This document shows, piece after piece, positions 3,726-28,185 of a stretch of DNA of 64,000 nucleotides. Origin of the DNA: Anaerolineae bacterium (GTDB lineage Bacteria; Chloroflexota; Anaerolineae; CG2-30-64-16); assembly GCA_034434235.1 (NCBI GenBank), contig DAOTZV010000129.1, positions 24,284 to 88,283 on the forward strand, written 5' to 3'. Position 1 is the stretch's first letter. Every line of letters begins with the position of its first letter. The notes beneath the pieces were generated by a model. It did no database searches and was not told where the DNA came from. It saw nothing but the letters and a program-made list of their open reading frames with translations. Both the position numbers and the translations under genes were made by a program.

Positions 3726-4413
3726 ACGTCGGATCCCGCCCGGGCGCTATTTCTGGGGCCTGGTCCTGCGCTTCTTGATCTGGCTTTTCGTCAGGGTCGA
3801 GATGCGGGGGCTGGAGAACCTCCCGCGGCGCGGTCCCGGCATCATCTATTATAACCACATCCATTGGCTCGACCCGGTCTTGATCAGCGGCAAGCTATCG
3901 CGCTACAACGTCCCTCTCACCAAGATCGAGGCCGCCTCCTGGCCGGTGGTCGGCTTTCTGTTGAAGGGCTATCACGTCATCTTCATCCGCCGCGGCACGG
4001 TGGATCGCCGCGCGTTGACCGCCACCTGGCAGGTGTTGGCCGACGGCGACATCTCCGTCATCTCGCCCGAGGGGACGCGCAGCCCCGACGGGACGCTGAA
4101 GCTGGCCAAAGAGGGGTTGGCCTTTGTCGGCCGCCGCGCGGCCGACGCCTGGTGGATTCCCTGCGCTGTCACCGGCACGCCGAAGTTCCGCTTCTCCATC
4201 CCGCTCATCAAGCGCACGCCGGTGACCCTGACCTTCGGCCGGCCGTTCCGGGTGCGCTGGCCCGAAGCTCAGCCCGAAAGCGCGAGTCGCGAGATGATGC
4301 GCGCGGTCACCGACGAGGCGATGGCCCAGCTTGCCGCGCTCCTGCCGGCCCACATGCGCGGGGACTATGCCGACGCCGATCCATCCCGGCAGCAGTGGAT
4401 CGAGTTTCTGTAA
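3712..4413 (+). CDS. plsC: 1-acyl-sn-glycerol-3-phosphate acyltransferase (PlsC family)
   Basis: HX4D motif NHIHWLDP and PEGTRS motif; N-terminal TM segment; ATG at 3712 overlaps the cmk stop by 14 nt. Confidence 0.8.
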   Translation: MAKRRRRIPPGRYFWGLVLRFLIWLFVRVEMRGLENLPRRGPGIIYYNHIHWLDPVLISGKLSRYNVPLTKIEAASWPVVGFLLKGYHVIFIRRGTVDRRALTATWQVLADGDISVISPEGTRSPDGTLKLAKEGLAFVGRRAADAWWIPCAVTGTPKFRFSIPLIKRTPVTLTFGRPFRVRWPEAQPESASREMMRAVTDEAMAQLAALLPAHMRGDYADADPSRQQWIEFL

Positions 4414-23525: not shown

Positions 23526-24380
23526 ATGAAACCCGCGCCTCGAACGAGCCACATCATCGTGACCGCCGACGATTTCGGCCGCTCGCCGGCCATCAACGCG
23601 GCGATCATGCGGGCGCACCGTGAGGGGATCCTCACCGCCGCCAGCCTGATGGTGGCCGGCGACGCCTGGGCCGAGGCGGTCGAGCTGGCGCGCGCCATGC
23701 CCACCCTGGCGGTCGGGCTTCACCTGGTGGTGTCCGGCGGCCGCGCCGTGTTGAGTCCCGGCGAGATCCCCCACCTGGTAGGCCCCGACGGCCTCTTTCC
23801 CGATGATCCGTTGCGCCTGGGCCTGCGCTACACTTTCGACCGCGCCGCACAGAGGGAGCTGGCGGCCGAGATCGCGGCGCAGTTCGCACGCTATGCCGCC
23901 ACGGGCCTGCCGCTTTCGCACGTGGACGGTCACCAGCACCTGCACGTGCATCCGGTCGTGTTCAACCTGTTGTTGTCCCTGGCCAAACAGTATGGCGCGC
24001 ACGGCGTGCGCGTGCCGGCCGACGACCTGATGTTCGCGCTGCGCTACGATCGCCGCGGGGCCGGCGCAAAGATCGGCTGGGCGCTGGGCCTGGGATTGGT
24101 GCTCGGCTGGTGTCGCCGCCGGGCGCGCGCCGGCGGCCTGGCCGTGGCCGATCGGGTGTACGGCGTCTTCCAGAGCGGCCGGATGACGGAGGGGTACGTG
24201 ATGGGTGTGTTGCGTGCGCTCAAGGCCCCTGTGGCCGAGTTCTACTTCCACCCGTCGCTGGAGAGCCTGGGCGAGGCGCTCGGCCCCAACCCCGGCGACC
24301 TGGCGACCCTGCTCAGCCCGGCGGTGCGCCAGGTGATCGAGGCGCGCGGGTTGCGCCTGGCGACATATGCGACCGCGTAA
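23526..24380 (+). CDS. ChbG/YdjC/HpnK-family carbohydrate deacetylase
   Basis: N-terminal IIVTADDFGRSPAINAAI is the hallmark of YdjC-like proteins; catalytic D/H residues (HVDGHQHLH). Confidence 0.75.
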   Translation: MKPAPRTSHIIVTADDFGRSPAINAAIMRAHREGILTAASLMVAGDAWAEAVELARAMPTLAVGLHLVVSGGRAVLSPGEIPHLVGPDGLFPDDPLRLGLRYTFDRAAQRELAAEIAAQFARYAATGLPLSHVDGHQHLHVHPVVFNLLLSLAKQYGAHGVRVPADDLMFALRYDRRGAGAKIGWALGLGLVLGWCRRRARAGGLAVADRVYGVFQSGRMTEGYVMGVLRALKAPVAEFYFHPSLESLGEALGPNPGDLATLLSPAVRQVIEARGLRLATYATA

Positions 24381-24440
24381 CGTGCCTGACGCTCTGGCAT
24401 ACCGCCGATTGACTTCACGTGCCTGGCACGTAACGCCAGA
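24372..24440. repeat. Palindromic element family A variant (CGTAACGTGCCTG...CACGTGCCTGGCACGTAACGCC)
   Basis: Central palindrome ACGTGCCTGGCACGT plus flanking inverted CGTAACGTGCC/GGCACGTAACG; lies between ydjC-like and modE-like genes. Confidence 0.5.
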
Positions 24441-24455
24441 ACTGCGACCGATGCC

Positions 24456-24821
24456 ATGGAACCATCCGATAACCTGTCTGGGGCACCCCTCACCGCCCAC
24501 GCCAATCTCTGGCTGGAAGCCAACGGCCAGGTCGCGCTGAGCCGCTGGCGCGTGCAACTGTTAGAAGCGATCGCCGCGACCGGCTCGATTCGCGCCGCGG
24601 CCGCGCAGATGAAGATCACCTACAACCTGGCGTGGCACCGCCTGGACGAGATGGAGCAGGCGCTGGGCGTCCAGTTGGTGCATCGGCAGCGCGGCGGCCC
24701 CGGGGGCGGCGCGGCGCAGCTCACCGAACAAGGCCGGGCCTATGTAGCGCGCTTCAACCGCTTTGCCGCAGAGGTGGACGCGGTCATGGCGCGGGCCTTC
24801 GAGGCCCATTTCGGCAGCTGA
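24456..24821 (+). CDS. ModE-N-terminal-like (LysR-type HTH) transcriptional regulator lacking molybdate-binding domains
   Basis: LSRWRVQLLEAIAATGSIRAAAAQMKITYNLAWHRLDEMEQALGVQLV resembles the ModE N-terminal HTH; located directly upstream of a tungstoenzyme gene. Confidence 0.65.
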   Translation: MEPSDNLSGAPLTAHANLWLEANGQVALSRWRVQLLEAIAATGSIRAAAAQMKITYNLAWHRLDEMEQALGVQLVHRQRGGPGGGAAQLTEQGRAYVARFNRFAAEVDAVMARAFEAHFGS

Positions 24822-24850
24822 GGCGCAGGAGATTTGGGGCTGCCGCAAAC

Positions 24851-24880
24851 TTGCATAATCGGCCGAAATGCGTACAATGA
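24851..24880 (+). promoter_or_regulatory. Sigma-70-like promoter TTGCAT-N17-TACAAT
   Basis: Near-consensus -35/-10 read directly in an AT-richer intergenic segment upstream of the AOR gene. Confidence 0.5.
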
Positions 24881-25116
24881 TTTTGTAAGCCTGCTCCCTA
24901 TCTTGCTTGTAGTCCACCGACAGGGTAATGACAGCGCAGTATTTGCCCGGCAACACTTCGCAGCGGTCCGGAACATCTCTGATCAAGCTGTTTCGGAAGG
25001 GTGAGGAAGCGAAAGGGCGTTATATCTGGCCGATATAACGCCCTTTTTGTTTCACATGAGGATGGCCAGCCACATCATTCCCATAAAATGTCCGCAGAAT
25101 GCATAAGGAGGTGCAC
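24881..25116 (+). promoter_or_regulatory. About 230-nt structured 5' leader of the AOR gene ending in an intrinsic terminator; candidate riboswitch/attenuator (Moco/Tuco-type suspected but not confirmed)
   Basis: Long leader between the predicted promoter and the SD-ATG (GGAGG 6 nt upstream of ATG 25117). Terminator 25014-25053 lies inside the leader, with a purine-rich segment GGAAGGGTGAGGAAGCGAAAGGGCG capable of alternative pairing. Confidence 0.35.
25014..25053 (+). terminator. Rho-independent terminator (AAGGGCGTTATAT-CTGGCCG-ATATAACGCCCTT + TTTTGTTT)
   Basis: 13-bp perfect stem followed by a T-run, 65 nt upstream of the AOR start codon. Confidence 0.7.
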
Positions 25117-26934
25117 ATGAATCTGGGCGGATATGCCAATCGGGTGGCCTGGATCGACCTGACCAAAGGGACGGTCGAGTACAAGCCGATCGCGGAGGAG
25201 GACGCGCTGAAGTACATCGGCGCGCGCGGCCTGGGGGTGAAGTACGTCTTCGACAACGGCCCCAAGGTGGATCCGCTGTCGCCGGAAAACATCCTGTGCT
25301 TCATGAACGGCCCGTTGACCGGCACCGACGCCAACATGAGCGGTCGCATGGCCATCGTGACCAAGTCGCCGCTCACCGGCACCGTGACCGACTCGCATCA
25401 CGGCGGCTGGTCGGCGGCCCGGCTCAAGTGGGCGGGCTTCGACGGCCTGGTCTTCAAGGGCAAGGCCGAAAAGCCGGTCTATGCCTATGTGGAGAACGGC
25501 CAGGTGACGTTGCACGACGCCAGCGACCTGTGGGGCAAGGGGGTCCACGAGACGATCAAGATCCTGCAAGAGCGCTACGGCAACGAAAAGGAGCTGAGCA
25601 TCATCGCGATCGGCCCGGCCGGCGAGAACCTGGTGAAGTTCGCCTGCTGGGTGAACGAGAACGATCGCGCCTCGGGTCGCGGCGGCACCGGCTGCGTGGG
25701 CGGCAGCAAGCACCTGAAGGCCATCGTGATCCGCGGCAAGCACGCCGATCGGCCCCGGCCGGTGGACCGGGACGGCTGGAAGACGGCCCACCAGCGCGCG
25801 CTGGCTACCATCATGGACGAGGCCAACGTCACCTCCCCGCGCAAGGGCGGCCTGTCGGTCTACGGCACCAACGTGCTGATGAACATCACCAGCAACATGG
25901 GCGCGCTGCCCAGCTACAACAGCAAGGTGACCAGCTTCGGCGAGAACGGCGAGCTGATCAGCGGCGAGTGGGTCAAGGCGAACATCCTGGTGAATGACCC
26001 CACTTGCCACGCCTGCCCGGTGGCCTGCAAGAAGGAGGTCGAGGTCAAGGAAGGGCCGTTCAAGATCCACATGGAGAGCCTGGAGTACGAGCCGGCCTGG
26101 TCGCTGGGCGCCAACTGCGGCAACAACGACGCCGGCGCGATTGCCTACATGATTGACCGGGCCAACGACTACGGCTACGACGCCATCGAGATCGGCGATG
26201 TCCTCTCCCTGTACATGGAGTACAGCGAGCGGGGCTACGCCAACGGCGACGGCCTGGCCTGGGGCGACCGCCACGGCATGGTCGAGCTCATGCGCAAGAT
26301 CGCCTACCGCGAGGGGATCGGCGACATCCTGGCCGAGGGCACCGGCAAGGCGGCCGCGAAGCTGGGCCATCCCGAGCTGGGCATGCACGTCAAGGGCCAG
26401 GGCATCCCGGCCTACGATCCGCGCGGCCTCAAGGGCATGGGCATCGCCTACGCCACCTCGAACCGCGGCGCGTGCCACCTGCGCGGCTACACCCCGGCCA
26501 GCGAGCTGGGCCTGATCCCGCTCAAGACCGACCCGCTGGCCTGGAAGGGCAAGGGCGAGCTGCTCAAGCTGCTCCAGGACTTGCATGCGTTCTCCGACAG
26601 CCTGGATCTGTGCAAGTTCTCGGCCTTCGCCGAGGGCGCGGAGGAGTACGCCCTCCAGTACAGCGCCATGACCGGCCGGGCCATCACGGCCGATGAGGTG
26701 CTCAAGACCGGCGAGCGCATCTACAACCTGGAGCGCTACTACAACAACCTCTGCGGCTTCGACGGCAAGGACGACACCCTGCCGGAGCGCTTCCTGAAGG
26801 AGCCTTCCACCATGCCCGGCTCCCAGGGCCATGTCTGCGAGCTGGACCTGATGAAGGAGGAGTACTATCGGGTGCGCGGCTGGGATAACGGCGTGGTCAC
26901 CGAGGCCAAGCTGAAGGAGCTGGGGATCGCTTAA
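25117..26934 (+). CDS. aor: Tungsten-containing aldehyde:ferredoxin oxidoreductase (AOR family)
   Basis: N-terminal domain (GYANRVAWIDLTKGTVEY...GARGLGVKYV), AOR motifs including GRMAIVTKSPLTG, Cys ligands for the [4Fe-4S] cluster (CHACPVAC), about 605 aa. Confidence 0.9.
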   Translation: MNLGGYANRVAWIDLTKGTVEYKPIAEEDALKYIGARGLGVKYVFDNGPKVDPLSPENILCFMNGPLTGTDANMSGRMAIVTKSPLTGTVTDSHHGGWSAARLKWAGFDGLVFKGKAEKPVYAYVENGQVTLHDASDLWGKGVHETIKILQERYGNEKELSIIAIGPAGENLVKFACWVNENDRASGRGGTGCVGGSKHLKAIVIRGKHADRPRPVDRDGWKTAHQRALATIMDEANVTSPRKGGLSVYGTNVLMNITSNMGALPSYNSKVTSFGENGELISGEWVKANILVNDPTCHACPVACKKEVEVKEGPFKIHMESLEYEPAWSLGANCGNNDAGAIAYMIDRANDYGYDAIEIGDVLSLYMEYSERGYANGDGLAWGDRHGMVELMRKIAYREGIGDILAEGTGKAAAKLGHPELGMHVKGQGIPAYDPRGLKGMGIAYATSNRGACHLRGYTPASELGLIPLKTDPLAWKGKGELLKLLQDLHAFSDSLDLCKFSAFAEGAEEYALQYSAMTGRAITADEVLKTGERIYNLERYYNNLCGFDGKDDTLPERFLKEPSTMPGSQGHVCELDLMKEEYYRVRGWDNGVVTEAKLKELGIA

Positions 26935-26974: not shown

Positions 26975-27016
26975 GATAGCAACCGGCACACTCCGCGCCG
27001 GTTGCTATCTTTTTAT
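26975..27016. terminator. Bidirectional intrinsic terminator (GATAGCAACCGGC-loop-GCCGGTTGCTATC-TTTTTA)
   Basis: 13-bp perfect stem plus T-run between the convergent AOR gene and the 27013-27921 gene. Confidence 0.7.
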
Positions 27017-27921
27017 CTTCCCGGCGGGAAGATGCTCAGCCGGTCGCCGGGCACCAGCGCGGCCTGCAACCCGCCCGCGTATTCCACGTTGCGGCCGTTG
27101 AGGCGGATGTTCCAATCGCGCCGCGGCCGATAGGCCGGCCGCACCCGCATCCAGGGGGTGCCCTCCTCGTCCGGCCGATATTCGTCCAGCCACACGGGAT
27201 CGAACACCTCGCGGCGCAGTTCGGGGAAGTAGTTGAAGAACTTGCGCAGGGCATGTTCGACGCGGCTGCCCGCCCCCAGCTTCACGCTCACCTCTTCGGC
27301 CTCGATCAGCGTGCGCAGCCGGCCGTAGACTTCGACCGGCAGGGCGAAGTCGCCCGCGTCCAGCTCGCGCGCGGCATGATAGCCGGCCGACATCAGGTGC
27401 CCGTGCATGGTGAGCAGCTTGTGCCAGCCGCTCAACGCGCGCGCCACCAGCGCCGCATCGCGCAGCTCGGCCGCGATGTAGCCGGCGAAGTTGGCCTGCG
27501 CCAGGCTGATCGCGCCGGACACGTAGACCTCGGGCACGTGGATGTGCCGCGGGCCGTGGCCGGCATGGTACTTGCCGGCGCGGTACAGGTAGCGGGCCAG
27601 GTCGTCGCTCAGGTCCAGGCCGATGGTGCGCGCCAGCCAGATGGTGAAGAAGCGCCGGCGTTCGGCCAGGTGCTCGGGGTCGGGGCCCTGCTCCCAGCCC
27701 AGGATCTCGGCCGTCTCCTTGAAGTTCAGCAGATAATCATACGCGCCGACGACGAATTCCGTGCCGTGGCGCATCAGGATCTCGACCGTCTCGGCCATGG
27801 CCGCCAGGTCCTGCCGGTTGAGATCCAGGAAGCTGCGCAGGCGCCGCCACTCTTCTTCCGGCGCCGGCGCCAGATCGGTCAACAACATGGCATCGGCATG
27901 TACACCCTCTCCGCCGTCCAT
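27013..27921 (-). CDS. Hypothetical protein (all-alpha N-terminal domain; the C-terminal tail ...GDRLSIFPPGR weakly resembles the end of ThiS/MoaD-like beta-grasp proteins)
   Basis: Codon usage supports a real gene; no confident family assignment. Confidence 0.45.
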   Translation of the reverse strand: MDGGEGVHADAMLLTDLAPAPEEEWRRLRSFLDLNRQDLAAMAETVEILMRHGTEFVVGAYDYLLNFKETAEILGWEQGPDPEHLAERRRFFTIWLARTIGLDLSDDLARYLYRAGKYHAGHGPRHIHVPEVYVSGAISLAQANFAGYIAAELRDAALVARALSGWHKLLTMHGHLMSAGYHAARELDAGDFALPVEVYGRLRTLIEAEEVSVKLGAGSRVEHALRKFFNYFPELRREVFDPVWLDEYRPDEEGTPWMRVRPAYRPRRDWNIRLNGRNVEYAGGLQAALVPGDRLSIFPPGR

Positions 27922-27936: not shown

Positions 27937-28185
27937 CTATCCGCCCGCGCGGATGGCTTTCTTCTGCAACGCCGCAATGACCTGCTCAACGGCGGCTGGC
28001 TCGCCGCTGAACGCCACCTCGGTGACCCCCAGCCGCAGCGCGTGGAGGCGGACCGGCTCGCCGGCCCATACCCGCGCCTGCCACCCCGGCCCCGCGATCA
28101 GGCCTGGCGCCGTCTCCGCGCCGCCCAGCTCGGTCAGGTAGAGGATCACGATGGGCACGCCGATCCCGCGCAGTGTCAGTTGCAT
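27937..28185 (-). CDS. Small hypothetical protein (82 aa) ending in Gly-Gly
   Basis: Fills the gap between two minus-strand genes with coding-like GC3; the C-terminal ...AIRAGG could indicate a ubiquitin-like/sulfur-carrier protein but the body is not typical. Confidence 0.35.
   Translation of the reverse strand: MQLTLRGIGVPIVILYLTELGGAETAPGLIAGPGWQARVWAGEPVRLHALRLGVTEVAFSGEPAAVEQVIAALQKKAIRAGG

Follow-up and report, generated by a model that had tools for sequence, protein, structure and literature searches.

The interval examined here (positions 24851–25116) lies in a 64-kb stretch of DNA (64,000 nucleotides (nt), referred to below as the window) from an Anaerolineae bacterium (assembly GCA_034434235.1, contig DAOTZV010000129.1), where it separates the gene of a 121-amino acid (aa) ModE-like regulator (24456–24821) from that of a tungsten-type aldehyde:ferredoxin oxidoreductase (AOR; ATG at 25117). 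We propose, with a probability that we would place at roughly 0.6, that the leader of the AOR gene is a ribosome-dependent attenuator of the kind found at E. coli pyrBI, and that the stem of its intrinsic terminator doubles as the operator of the adjacent regulator. A preliminary description of the interval had seen in it an untranslated leader and a candidate riboswitch for the molybdenum or tungsten cofactor (Moco or Tuco), and had considered control both at the RNA level and by the ModE-like protein to be plausible. The architecture of terminator and promoter, a leader open reading frame (ORF) and the coincidence of stem and operator all support control at those two levels; the riboswitch form of it does not hold up. 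The features concerned are these:

24456–24821, plus strand: regulator gene, encoding a 121-aa winged helix-turn-helix protein that corresponds to the N-terminal part of ModE only, without a Mop (molybdate-binding) domain.
24851–24878, plus strand: putative sigma-70-type leader promoter, with −35 element TTGCAT (24851–24856), 16-nt spacer and −10 element TACAAT (24873–24878).
24928–25038, plus strand: predicted leader ORF of 36 codons (MTAQYLPGNTSQRSGTSLIKLFRKGEEAKGRYIWPI*), starting with ATG and ending with TAA at 25036–25038, the stop codon lying within the 3' arm of the terminator hairpin.
24967–24997, plus strand: local 9-bp hairpin within the leader ORF (UCCGGAACA / UGUUUCGGA), predicted by RNAfold in both the minimum free energy and the centroid structure.
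25012–25052, plus strand: predicted intrinsic terminator, with a 15-bp stem (25012–25026/25032–25046), the loop UGGCC and a U-tract (UUUUUGUUU) ending at 25052.
25018–25040, no strand assigned: putative ModE-type operator, a 23-bp palindrome CGTTATAT-N7-ATATAACG (equivalent to GTTAT-N11-ATAAC) that forms the core of the terminator stem.
25053–25105, plus strand: spacer between terminator and ribosome-binding site, C/A-rich in most relatives.
25106–26934, plus strand: Shine-Dalgarno (SD) sequence AAGGAGG (25106–25112) and AOR gene, with ATG at 25117 and a product of 605 aa.

The terminator is the most conspicuous of these features. Its stem comprises 15 perfect pairs (a core of 12 G/C/A/T pairs and three A-T pairs) around the 5-nt loop TGGCC, with a calculated free energy of approximately −21 kcal/mol, and is followed by a T-rich run (TTTTTGTTT, 25044–25052), all of which agrees with the strong terminator described previously. 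The distance from the end of the T-tract to the AOR start codon (64 nt) is also close to the 65 nt given before. A consensus terminator scan did not list this hairpin, because the extension of its stem through A-T and G-T pairs consumes the T-run. We compared the window with 80 loci, mostly from metagenome-assembled genomes (MAGs) of Chloroflexota, that were obtained by a search with the AOR protein (itself matching Pfam AFOR_N with an E value of 1e-76 and AFOR_C with 1e-129); the orthologues, at 67–97% identity, belong mainly to Chloroflexota, and a few come from MAGs that carry the label Gemmatimonadota or Deltaproteobacteria. In 21–23 of 23 related AOR leaders the equivalent place is occupied by a hairpin with a T-tract. 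On this comparative evidence the hairpin and its U-tract are a conserved intrinsic terminator.

The four closest loci (L001, L002, L003 and L006) share the entire layout, with a TTGCnn-N17-TAnAAT promoter, a leader of approximately 130–170 nt, a hairpin and a T-tract, and a distance of 46–140 nt from the palindrome (hereafter 'the box') to the AOR start codon. The leader sequence itself is poorly kept: that of L001, whose AOR is 97% identical, can be aligned with the window in the hairpin core only. The GC content of the intergenic leader (0.50–0.54, against 0.65–0.75 in the flanking regions) confirms that it is AT-richer than its surroundings.

The core of the stem is conserved in a different manner. 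The sequence CGTTATAT-N7-ATATAACG occurs once in the 64 kb when up to three mismatches are allowed, and not at all in 100 shuffled sequences; there are no further copies of the box in the window, where matches to the relaxed pattern GCGTT-N15-AACGC are found at chance level only. The palindrome GCGTTAT-N11-ATAACGC recurs at constant spacing upstream of AOR in many loci, and the operator lies within a terminator stem in more than 20 lineages. When 42 related sites are considered together (23 from AOR leaders and 19 that are not associated with a terminator), the half-sites are either invariant or altered symmetrically (GCTAT/ATAGC). Complementarity of the stem beyond the box averages 7.5 bp for the 23 AOR-leader sites versus 1.6 bp for the 19 operator-only sites (p = 2e-7), and the 10 nt that follow the stem contain 5.1 T residues in the former versus 2.8 in the latter (p = 8e-5). 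In a 13-sequence alignment analyzed with RNAalifold, 10 of the 15 stem pairs display compensatory changes. The seven outer pairs covary freely, and the pairs of the core (C-G, G-C, Y-R, U-A, A-U, U-A) are invariant or change symmetrically. Free covariation outside and a fixed core inside is the pattern expected if the element is under selection both for RNA pairing and for sequence-specific recognition of DNA.

One close relative separates the two functions. The L003 locus (AOR 91% identical) possesses neither the box nor an adjacent regulator gene, and keeps the promoter, a 23-codon leader ORF that ends in an unrelated hairpin of −29 kcal/mol, and a T-tract; an attenuator can therefore exist without the operator.

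Several observations point to the neighboring protein as the ligand of the box. The regulator matches Pfam HTH_1, the ModE_repress family TIGR00637 (at 71.8 bits, under the cutoff of 98.5) and the structures 1b9m, 1o7l and 2ijl in the PDB (E values of approximately 1e-9), with the match to E. coli ModE (1b9m, E = 1.8e-9) covering residues 10–96 only. Its earlier assignment as a protein resembling the N-terminal part of ModE is thus borne out, with the addition that the 121 residues contain no match to the C-terminal Mop/TOBE (di-Mop, molybdate-binding) domain, so that it is not a full-length ModE. The same holds for its family: across 105 homologue clusters of 78–149 aa (nearly all of them 109–149 aa), HTH_1 is the sole Pfam match in 104, and the remaining cluster has no Pfam match at all. 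In each of four long contigs that were inspected, AOR directly follows the regulator gene (after 236–313 nt) and the intergenic box forms part of a hairpin that is followed by a T-tract; a TTGCnn promoter is present as well in three of the four. The regulator adjoins AOR in L001, L002, L010 and eight further metagenome loci; an adjacent regulator gene is seen in the window, L001, L002, L010, L081–L089, L091, L093, L098 and L136.

A scan of metagenomes with an alignment of the regulator divided the family into two genomic contexts. In the first, homologues that are 55–79% identical (together with that of L136, at 43%) precede AOR, and the box lies within a terminator-like hairpin. In the second, homologues that are 42–55% identical precede genes for TupA-like tungstate-binding proteins, FdhD or NAD-formate dehydrogenase. 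The tupA, fdhD and fdh loci carry the same N11 box, 20–160 nt past the stop codon of the regulator gene, where it overlaps the −10 element and spacer of a TTGnnn promoter and lacks both the T-tract and the extension of the stem. The palindrome is, to judge from its fixed N11 form next to regulator homologues in two different contexts, a protein-recognition element of this ModE-N-only family, and its targets look like a tungsten/molybdenum regulon. We found nothing conserved among relatives upstream of the regulator gene itself that might serve as an operator. In the window, that region (24379–24445) contains a repeated AACGTGCCTG element and a palindrome, ACGTGCC-TG-GCACGT, that overlaps a TTGACT hexamer; neither is conserved upstream of the regulator genes of relatives.

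The half-sites in the stem core agree with RTTATGT-N8-RCATAAY, a ModE motif that Studholme and Pau predicted and that has been validated in electrophoretic mobility shift assays (EMSAs) with the protein of M. acetivorans (PMC12327845), with a spacing that is shorter by 1 bp. M. acetivorans ModE binds DNA in vitro independently of molybdate (PMC12327845). Among 31 perfect sites in 312 kb of regulator loci, the spacing is N11 in 26, N12 in three, N10 in one and N14 in one, and all three N12 sites belong to the loci of distant homologues (no more than 43% identical, or without a BLAST match). Those canonical N12 Mo-boxes, for example CGCTATATTGATCAAAACATAGCG (L137 at 2432, L163 at 2961, L165 at 2656), contrast with the N11 spacing of the N-only family.

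A different arrangement is seen at more distant AOR loci (L044 at 3730–3790, L050, L065 and L080), in which a ModE-type box or half box (AGTATAACGC) is positioned far upstream of a TTGACT promoter; the same arrangement occurs upstream of AOR in L016, L036, L042, L072 and L073. The box at these distant loci is adjoined by a palindrome resembling CRP/FNR sites (TGTGA-N6-TCAC) and by a second palindrome (TTAAG-N5-CTTAA), and a short hairpin (AACAGCGNNNGCTGTT) with a T-run immediately precedes the AOR SD sequence.

The promoter that would drive transcription of the leader is less close to the consensus than had been described, with three of six positions matched in the −35 element and five of six in the −10 element (8 of 12 in total), and it falls below the threshold of the promoter scan; its spacer is 16 nt rather than 17. 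Its position is conserved: 16 of 23 related loci have TTGCnn-N16-18-TAnAAT at the same offset, 155–175 nt upstream of the palindrome, and two more have a TTGACT promoter at −134, nearer the box. Given this positional conservation the leader promoter is probably real, and transcription is predicted to start near 24885, approximately 45 nt before the leader ORF. The hairpin probably also ends the transcript of the upstream regulator gene. That this might be its only role had been named earlier as the fallback explanation; a conserved promoter and a leader ORF intervene between that gene and the hairpin.

A reading in two transcription units would dispense with read-through. The upstream promoter, ORF and terminator would then yield a short RNA or peptide and end the regulator transcript, and AOR would be transcribed from a promoter of its own within 25051–25105, activated by the regulator bound at the palindrome. 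There is indeed a promoter-like match directly after the hairpin (TTCACA-16-CATCAT, 25051–25078) that agrees with the consensus at 9 of 12 positions and would put the center of the box near −56, a plausible position for an activator; E. coli ModE activates promoters from upstream sites, moaA being an example (PMC2408646). We rejected this candidate promoter as a general feature, since the match is present in the window only (one of 23 loci, with none in the 22 others). The spacer that contains it is unconserved even between close relatives, the leader peptide that the upstream unit would make is not conserved either, and the gap from box to AOR start codon amounts to just 46–52 nt in several loci (the shortest being 46–47 nt), which leaves no room for a promoter and an SD sequence. 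From the rarity of the match and the shortness of that gap we conclude that AOR must normally be transcribed through the terminator, and the arrangement in two units appears improbable.

The leader had been called untranslated, which is doubtful given the 36-codon ORF at 24928–25038 and the conservation of its presence and position. In relatives, the start codon (ATG or GTG) is found at −78 to −96 relative to the box and opens ORFs of 26–37 codons that end inside the hairpin or, in some lineages, ORFs of approximately 39–60 codons that traverse it. Of 19 representative loci, 16 have an ORF that begins 70–100 nt upstream of the box and extends to the hairpin, compared with an expectation of 7.5 from dinucleotide shuffles (P of approximately 5e-5; ATG or GTG starts, all frames). 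A narrower test, restricted to ATG starts and to the 'GRY' frame, had found such ORFs in five of 23 loci only, a picture that was reversed when GTG starts and all frames were admitted. An SD core (AAGG, AGGA, GGAG or GAGG) precedes the ORF start in 9 of 17 loci, compared with a background of 6%.

We considered whether the ORF encodes a functional small protein and rejected this, since substitutions fall evenly on the three codon positions (58/52/63, with no periodicity) and the frame that runs through the box varies between lineages. Without codon periodicity, what appears to be conserved is translation up to the terminator and not the peptide. No conserved run of regulatory codons was found in the leader ORFs, and RNAalifold found no consensus alternative (antiterminator) pairing across 13–14 leaders. 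A classical 1:2/2:3/3:4 pairing scheme that uses GGCGTT-like and AAGCGCC-like repeats, assembled by eye, is plausible in L001 but fails in L086 and was therefore rejected. The hairpin at 24967–24997 is a candidate pause or timing hairpin by its modeled fold; every related leader has a hairpin approximately 10–55 nt before the box, and these hairpins do not align with one another. Compared with shuffled sequences, the segment that precedes the terminator has slightly more structure (mean z = −0.74, p = 0.006, n = 17).

Within this AOR family, leader ORFs appear to be a recurrent theme. The leader ORF of L003 (3774–3845) encodes a Cys-rich peptide (MKPVCCRQLGCCGAAPRCQPWSK) and ends in the terminator; pairs of Cys residues occur in several other leader peptides and are absent from that of the window. 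A further type of leader occurs approximately 100 nt upstream of AOR in L027, L028, L031 and L039, in which a strong SD sequence (GGAGAGGAGG) and a small ORF overlap the AOR ribosome-binding site and CCCCAAAACCTTCATCAATAAGGAG is conserved.

The same leaders speak to the suggestion that a Moco/Tuco-type or new class of riboswitch, with an aptamer in the approximately 130 nt before the hairpin, controls the terminator. The order of promoter, long leader, terminator and gene is the typical architecture of such a device, Moco RNAs of the Tuco type have been described ahead of tungsten-related genes (PMC2408646), and the slight excess of structure before the terminator would be in keeping with it. 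A search with all Rfam families at the gathering score yielded no match in the 64-kb window or in 15 orthologous loci. The Moco family RF01055, for which a search had been suggested previously, was absent from 24700–25250 even at E values of up to 10, a threshold at which that segment gave only chance matches of the terminator hairpin to models of miRNA precursors. In the Moco motif, a highly conserved junction is surrounded by up to five stems (PMC2408646), and no conserved multi-stem (P1–P5) junction of this kind is present in the 13–14 leaders compared. After alignment of 13 full leaders with MAFFT, the only consensus structure returned by RNAalifold was the terminator hairpin, and the 5' part of 14 leaders, upstream of the ORF, gave no consensus pairs at all. 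The comparison of leaders for covariation that had also been suggested thus recovers a covarying terminator and no aptamer, with neither conserved nucleotides nor consensus pairs ahead of the hairpin. That near-identical AOR genes carry unalignable leaders is the opposite of how an aptamer behaves, and the conserved SD sequence, start codon and open frame point instead to translation. We regard the riboswitch reading as largely refuted and put very little weight on what is left of it; a small-molecule-binding RNA is not involved in the attenuation that we propose. What replaces a plausible riboswitch call is a concrete architecture that can be tested.

The ribosome-dependent attenuator could operate as follows. 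The terminator lies approximately 85–125 nt downstream of the leader ORF start, and the stop codon comes approximately 110 nt into the ORF. Experiments in E. coli show that terminators located no more than a few nt from a stop codon are repressed by the ribosome, and the same study argues that, over the initial ~100 bp of an ORF, a ribosome will rarely catch up with a polymerase that does not pause, a pause being the case in pyrBI (PMC4824070). Because the distance from ORF start to terminator is too short for the usual catch-up, polymerases would terminate at 25052 by default, and read-through into AOR would take place when the ribosome on the leader ORF trails the polymerase closely enough to cover the 5' arm of the hairpin. 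The regulator, bound to the palindrome in the DNA, would be positioned to stall the polymerase just before the terminator is transcribed.

In the reading that we favor, the regulatory input is this stall, which would allow the ribosome to catch up, such that the bound regulator would activate AOR. Three points argue for activation. The operator with its bound protein is the only conserved element that could hold the polymerase ahead of the terminator; the DNA-bound state would repress tungstate uptake in relatives at a time when a tungsten enzyme should be switched on; and the box of L044, L050, L065 and L080 is located ahead of the promoter, in the position typical for an activator. In its most specific form the proposal would make a DNA-binding factor into an antiterminator that never contacts RNA: the stall would give a ribosome time to catch up along the ~36-codon ORF, and the coupled ribosome would push the polymerase onward and cover the 5' arm, preventing the hairpin from forming and letting transcription proceed into AOR. 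This full sequence of events is speculative, and we would not count on it. If it were true, a single protein acting through the same box would be a repressor of tungstate uptake at promoters and an activator of a tungsten enzyme at a terminator.

The sign of the regulator's effect on read-through is a matter of inference, and a repressor that acts as a roadblock is nearly as likely. The bound regulator would in that case block the elongating polymerase and repress AOR, the ORF and terminator would sense translation as a separate layer of control, and no special mechanism would attach to the overlap of operator and stem. Roadblock operators inside transcribed regions are well known (CcpA at cre sites, CodY, PurR at purB, LacI). 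The same box occupies a classical repressor position (the −10 element and spacer) at the tupA, fdhD and fdh promoters, and its location in the leader is approximately +135 to +160 relative to the promoter. Such an arrangement would, however, line up a terminator and a roadblock, both of them negative, without any identified means of turning AOR on, and would have the tungsten enzyme repressed by the same DNA-bound state as the uptake of tungstate. It also cannot apply to the other AOR loci, where the box is upstream of the promoter and roadblocking is impossible, and it leaves unexplained why the operator is placed exactly in the terminator stem in so many lineages. Taken as a whole we consider repression by roadblock an unlikely account, if one to be kept in view.

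A number of points weigh against the attenuator with an embedded operator. We know of no case in which a DNA-bound protein aids read-through by pausing the polymerase ahead of a terminator. The spacing of the box is N11 and not the canonical N12, it is co-occurrence that suggests binding of the box by the 121-aa protein, and the regulator has no recognizable sensor domain. The SD sequence of the window's own leader ORF is weak (AGGG, 2 nt from the ATG), the leader ORF of L136 is truncated, and no upstream promoter was found in L091 and L098, where the ORFs still reach the hairpin. A palindromic operator in transcribed DNA will fold as an RNA hairpin in any event, so that the overlap could in part be a by-product; the extended stems and the T-tracts of the AOR leaders argue against this view. 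Finally, all of the relatives are metagenome assemblies, and the whole case is built on sequence comparison and not on experiment.

Genes around the locus offer some further observations. Apart from genes of a protoglobin-MoaD-like type, we found no other tungsten or molybdenum genes near AOR. In the window, a 302-aa protein with a protoglobin domain fused to a ThiS/MoaD-like C-terminus is encoded convergently to AOR (27013–27921, minus strand) and is adjoined by an 82-aa ORF (27937–28185, minus strand); the 82-aa counterpart of the latter in L081 carries the annotation MoaD_arch. In approximately 15 of the 80 loci a clear homologue of the fusion (46–86% identity) adjoins AOR, on either side, which suggests that the tungsten enzyme has a haem-sensor/sulfur-carrier partner. 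The regulator gene of the window is immediately preceded by an HpnK-like gene (hopanoid biosynthesis-associated, YdjC family; 23541–24380, plus strand) that scores above the TIGR03473 cutoff. In L082 and L087 the regulator gene is directly preceded by an unidentified gene with a conserved Cys-rich C-terminus (...CGGCLWAQG[VL]IRCP*).

To our knowledge, the regulation of tungsten enzymes is almost unknown beyond a few model organisms, and the unusual combination described here, for which the evidence from conservation is strong, gives a first handle on AOR regulation in Chloroflexota. It delineates a sensor-less, ModE-N-only regulator family in that phylum together with its N11 operator, and outlines a likely regulon of AOR, tupA, fdhD and fdh. 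The element itself, placed at the end of a leader ORF, appears to be under selection in two capacities, in DNA as a palindrome to which a protein binds and in RNA as the hairpin of a terminator; a limited literature search brought up no account of an operator within a terminator stem at such a site. If the regulator does work through this overlap, it would represent a new route by which a DNA-binding repressor is turned into an activator, and a compact part for synthetic biology. The case also carries a caution for annotation, in that palindromic operators may resemble terminators, and terminators operators.

The proposed element can be compared with several known systems. Like the ModE operators of E. 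coli (modA-type), Rhodobacter (Mo-boxes) and M. acetivorans, it is an inverted repeat of the form (C)GTTAT(G/A)...(C/T)ATAAC(G), its presumed binder is homologous to the N-terminal winged helix-turn-helix of ModE, it is associated with genes of tungsten and molybdenum metabolism, and the sites at the transporter genes of relatives overlap the promoter, as at modA. It differs in its N11 spacing (versus N12 in the M. acetivorans sites and at the loci of distant ModE homologues), in the absence of Mop from the regulator, and in the placement of the AOR site, which is found approximately 135 nt into a transcribed leader and makes up the stem of a terminator of the intrinsic type.

With the Moco/Tuco RNAs (RF01055) the AOR leader shares a location in the 5' leader of a tungsten or molybdenum gene (here an AOR with AFOR_N and AFOR_C domains) and a terminator that could be used as an expression platform, and at E. 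coli moaA a riboswitch co-exists with control by ModE (PMC2408646). It is unlike them in having no match in sequence or structure and no multi-stem junction, in being unconserved, and in containing a predicted translated ORF instead.

Roadblock operators (CcpA at cre, CodY, PurR at purB, the DnaA box in asnC) also lie downstream of a promoter in the path of the polymerase; unlike the AOR operator, they are not known to be embedded in a terminator stem or coupled to a leader ORF, and their known action is purely negative. Attenuators of the trp and his type likewise have a leader ORF, an intrinsic terminator and a hairpin in the leader, whereas no regulatory codon run and no conserved antiterminator pairing were found in the AOR leader, and its ORF enters the terminator instead of stopping before it. 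The proposed mechanism resembles that of pyrBI of E. coli, in which a short leader ORF, whose peptide is unimportant, reads into or through an intrinsic terminator, and where, as proposed here, read-through needs a ribosome close behind the polymerase and a pause ahead of the terminator permits the coupling (PMC4824070). Unlike pyrBI, the AOR leader has no evident U-rich, UTP-sensitive pause region, and the candidate pause element is instead the operator of a DNA-binding protein.

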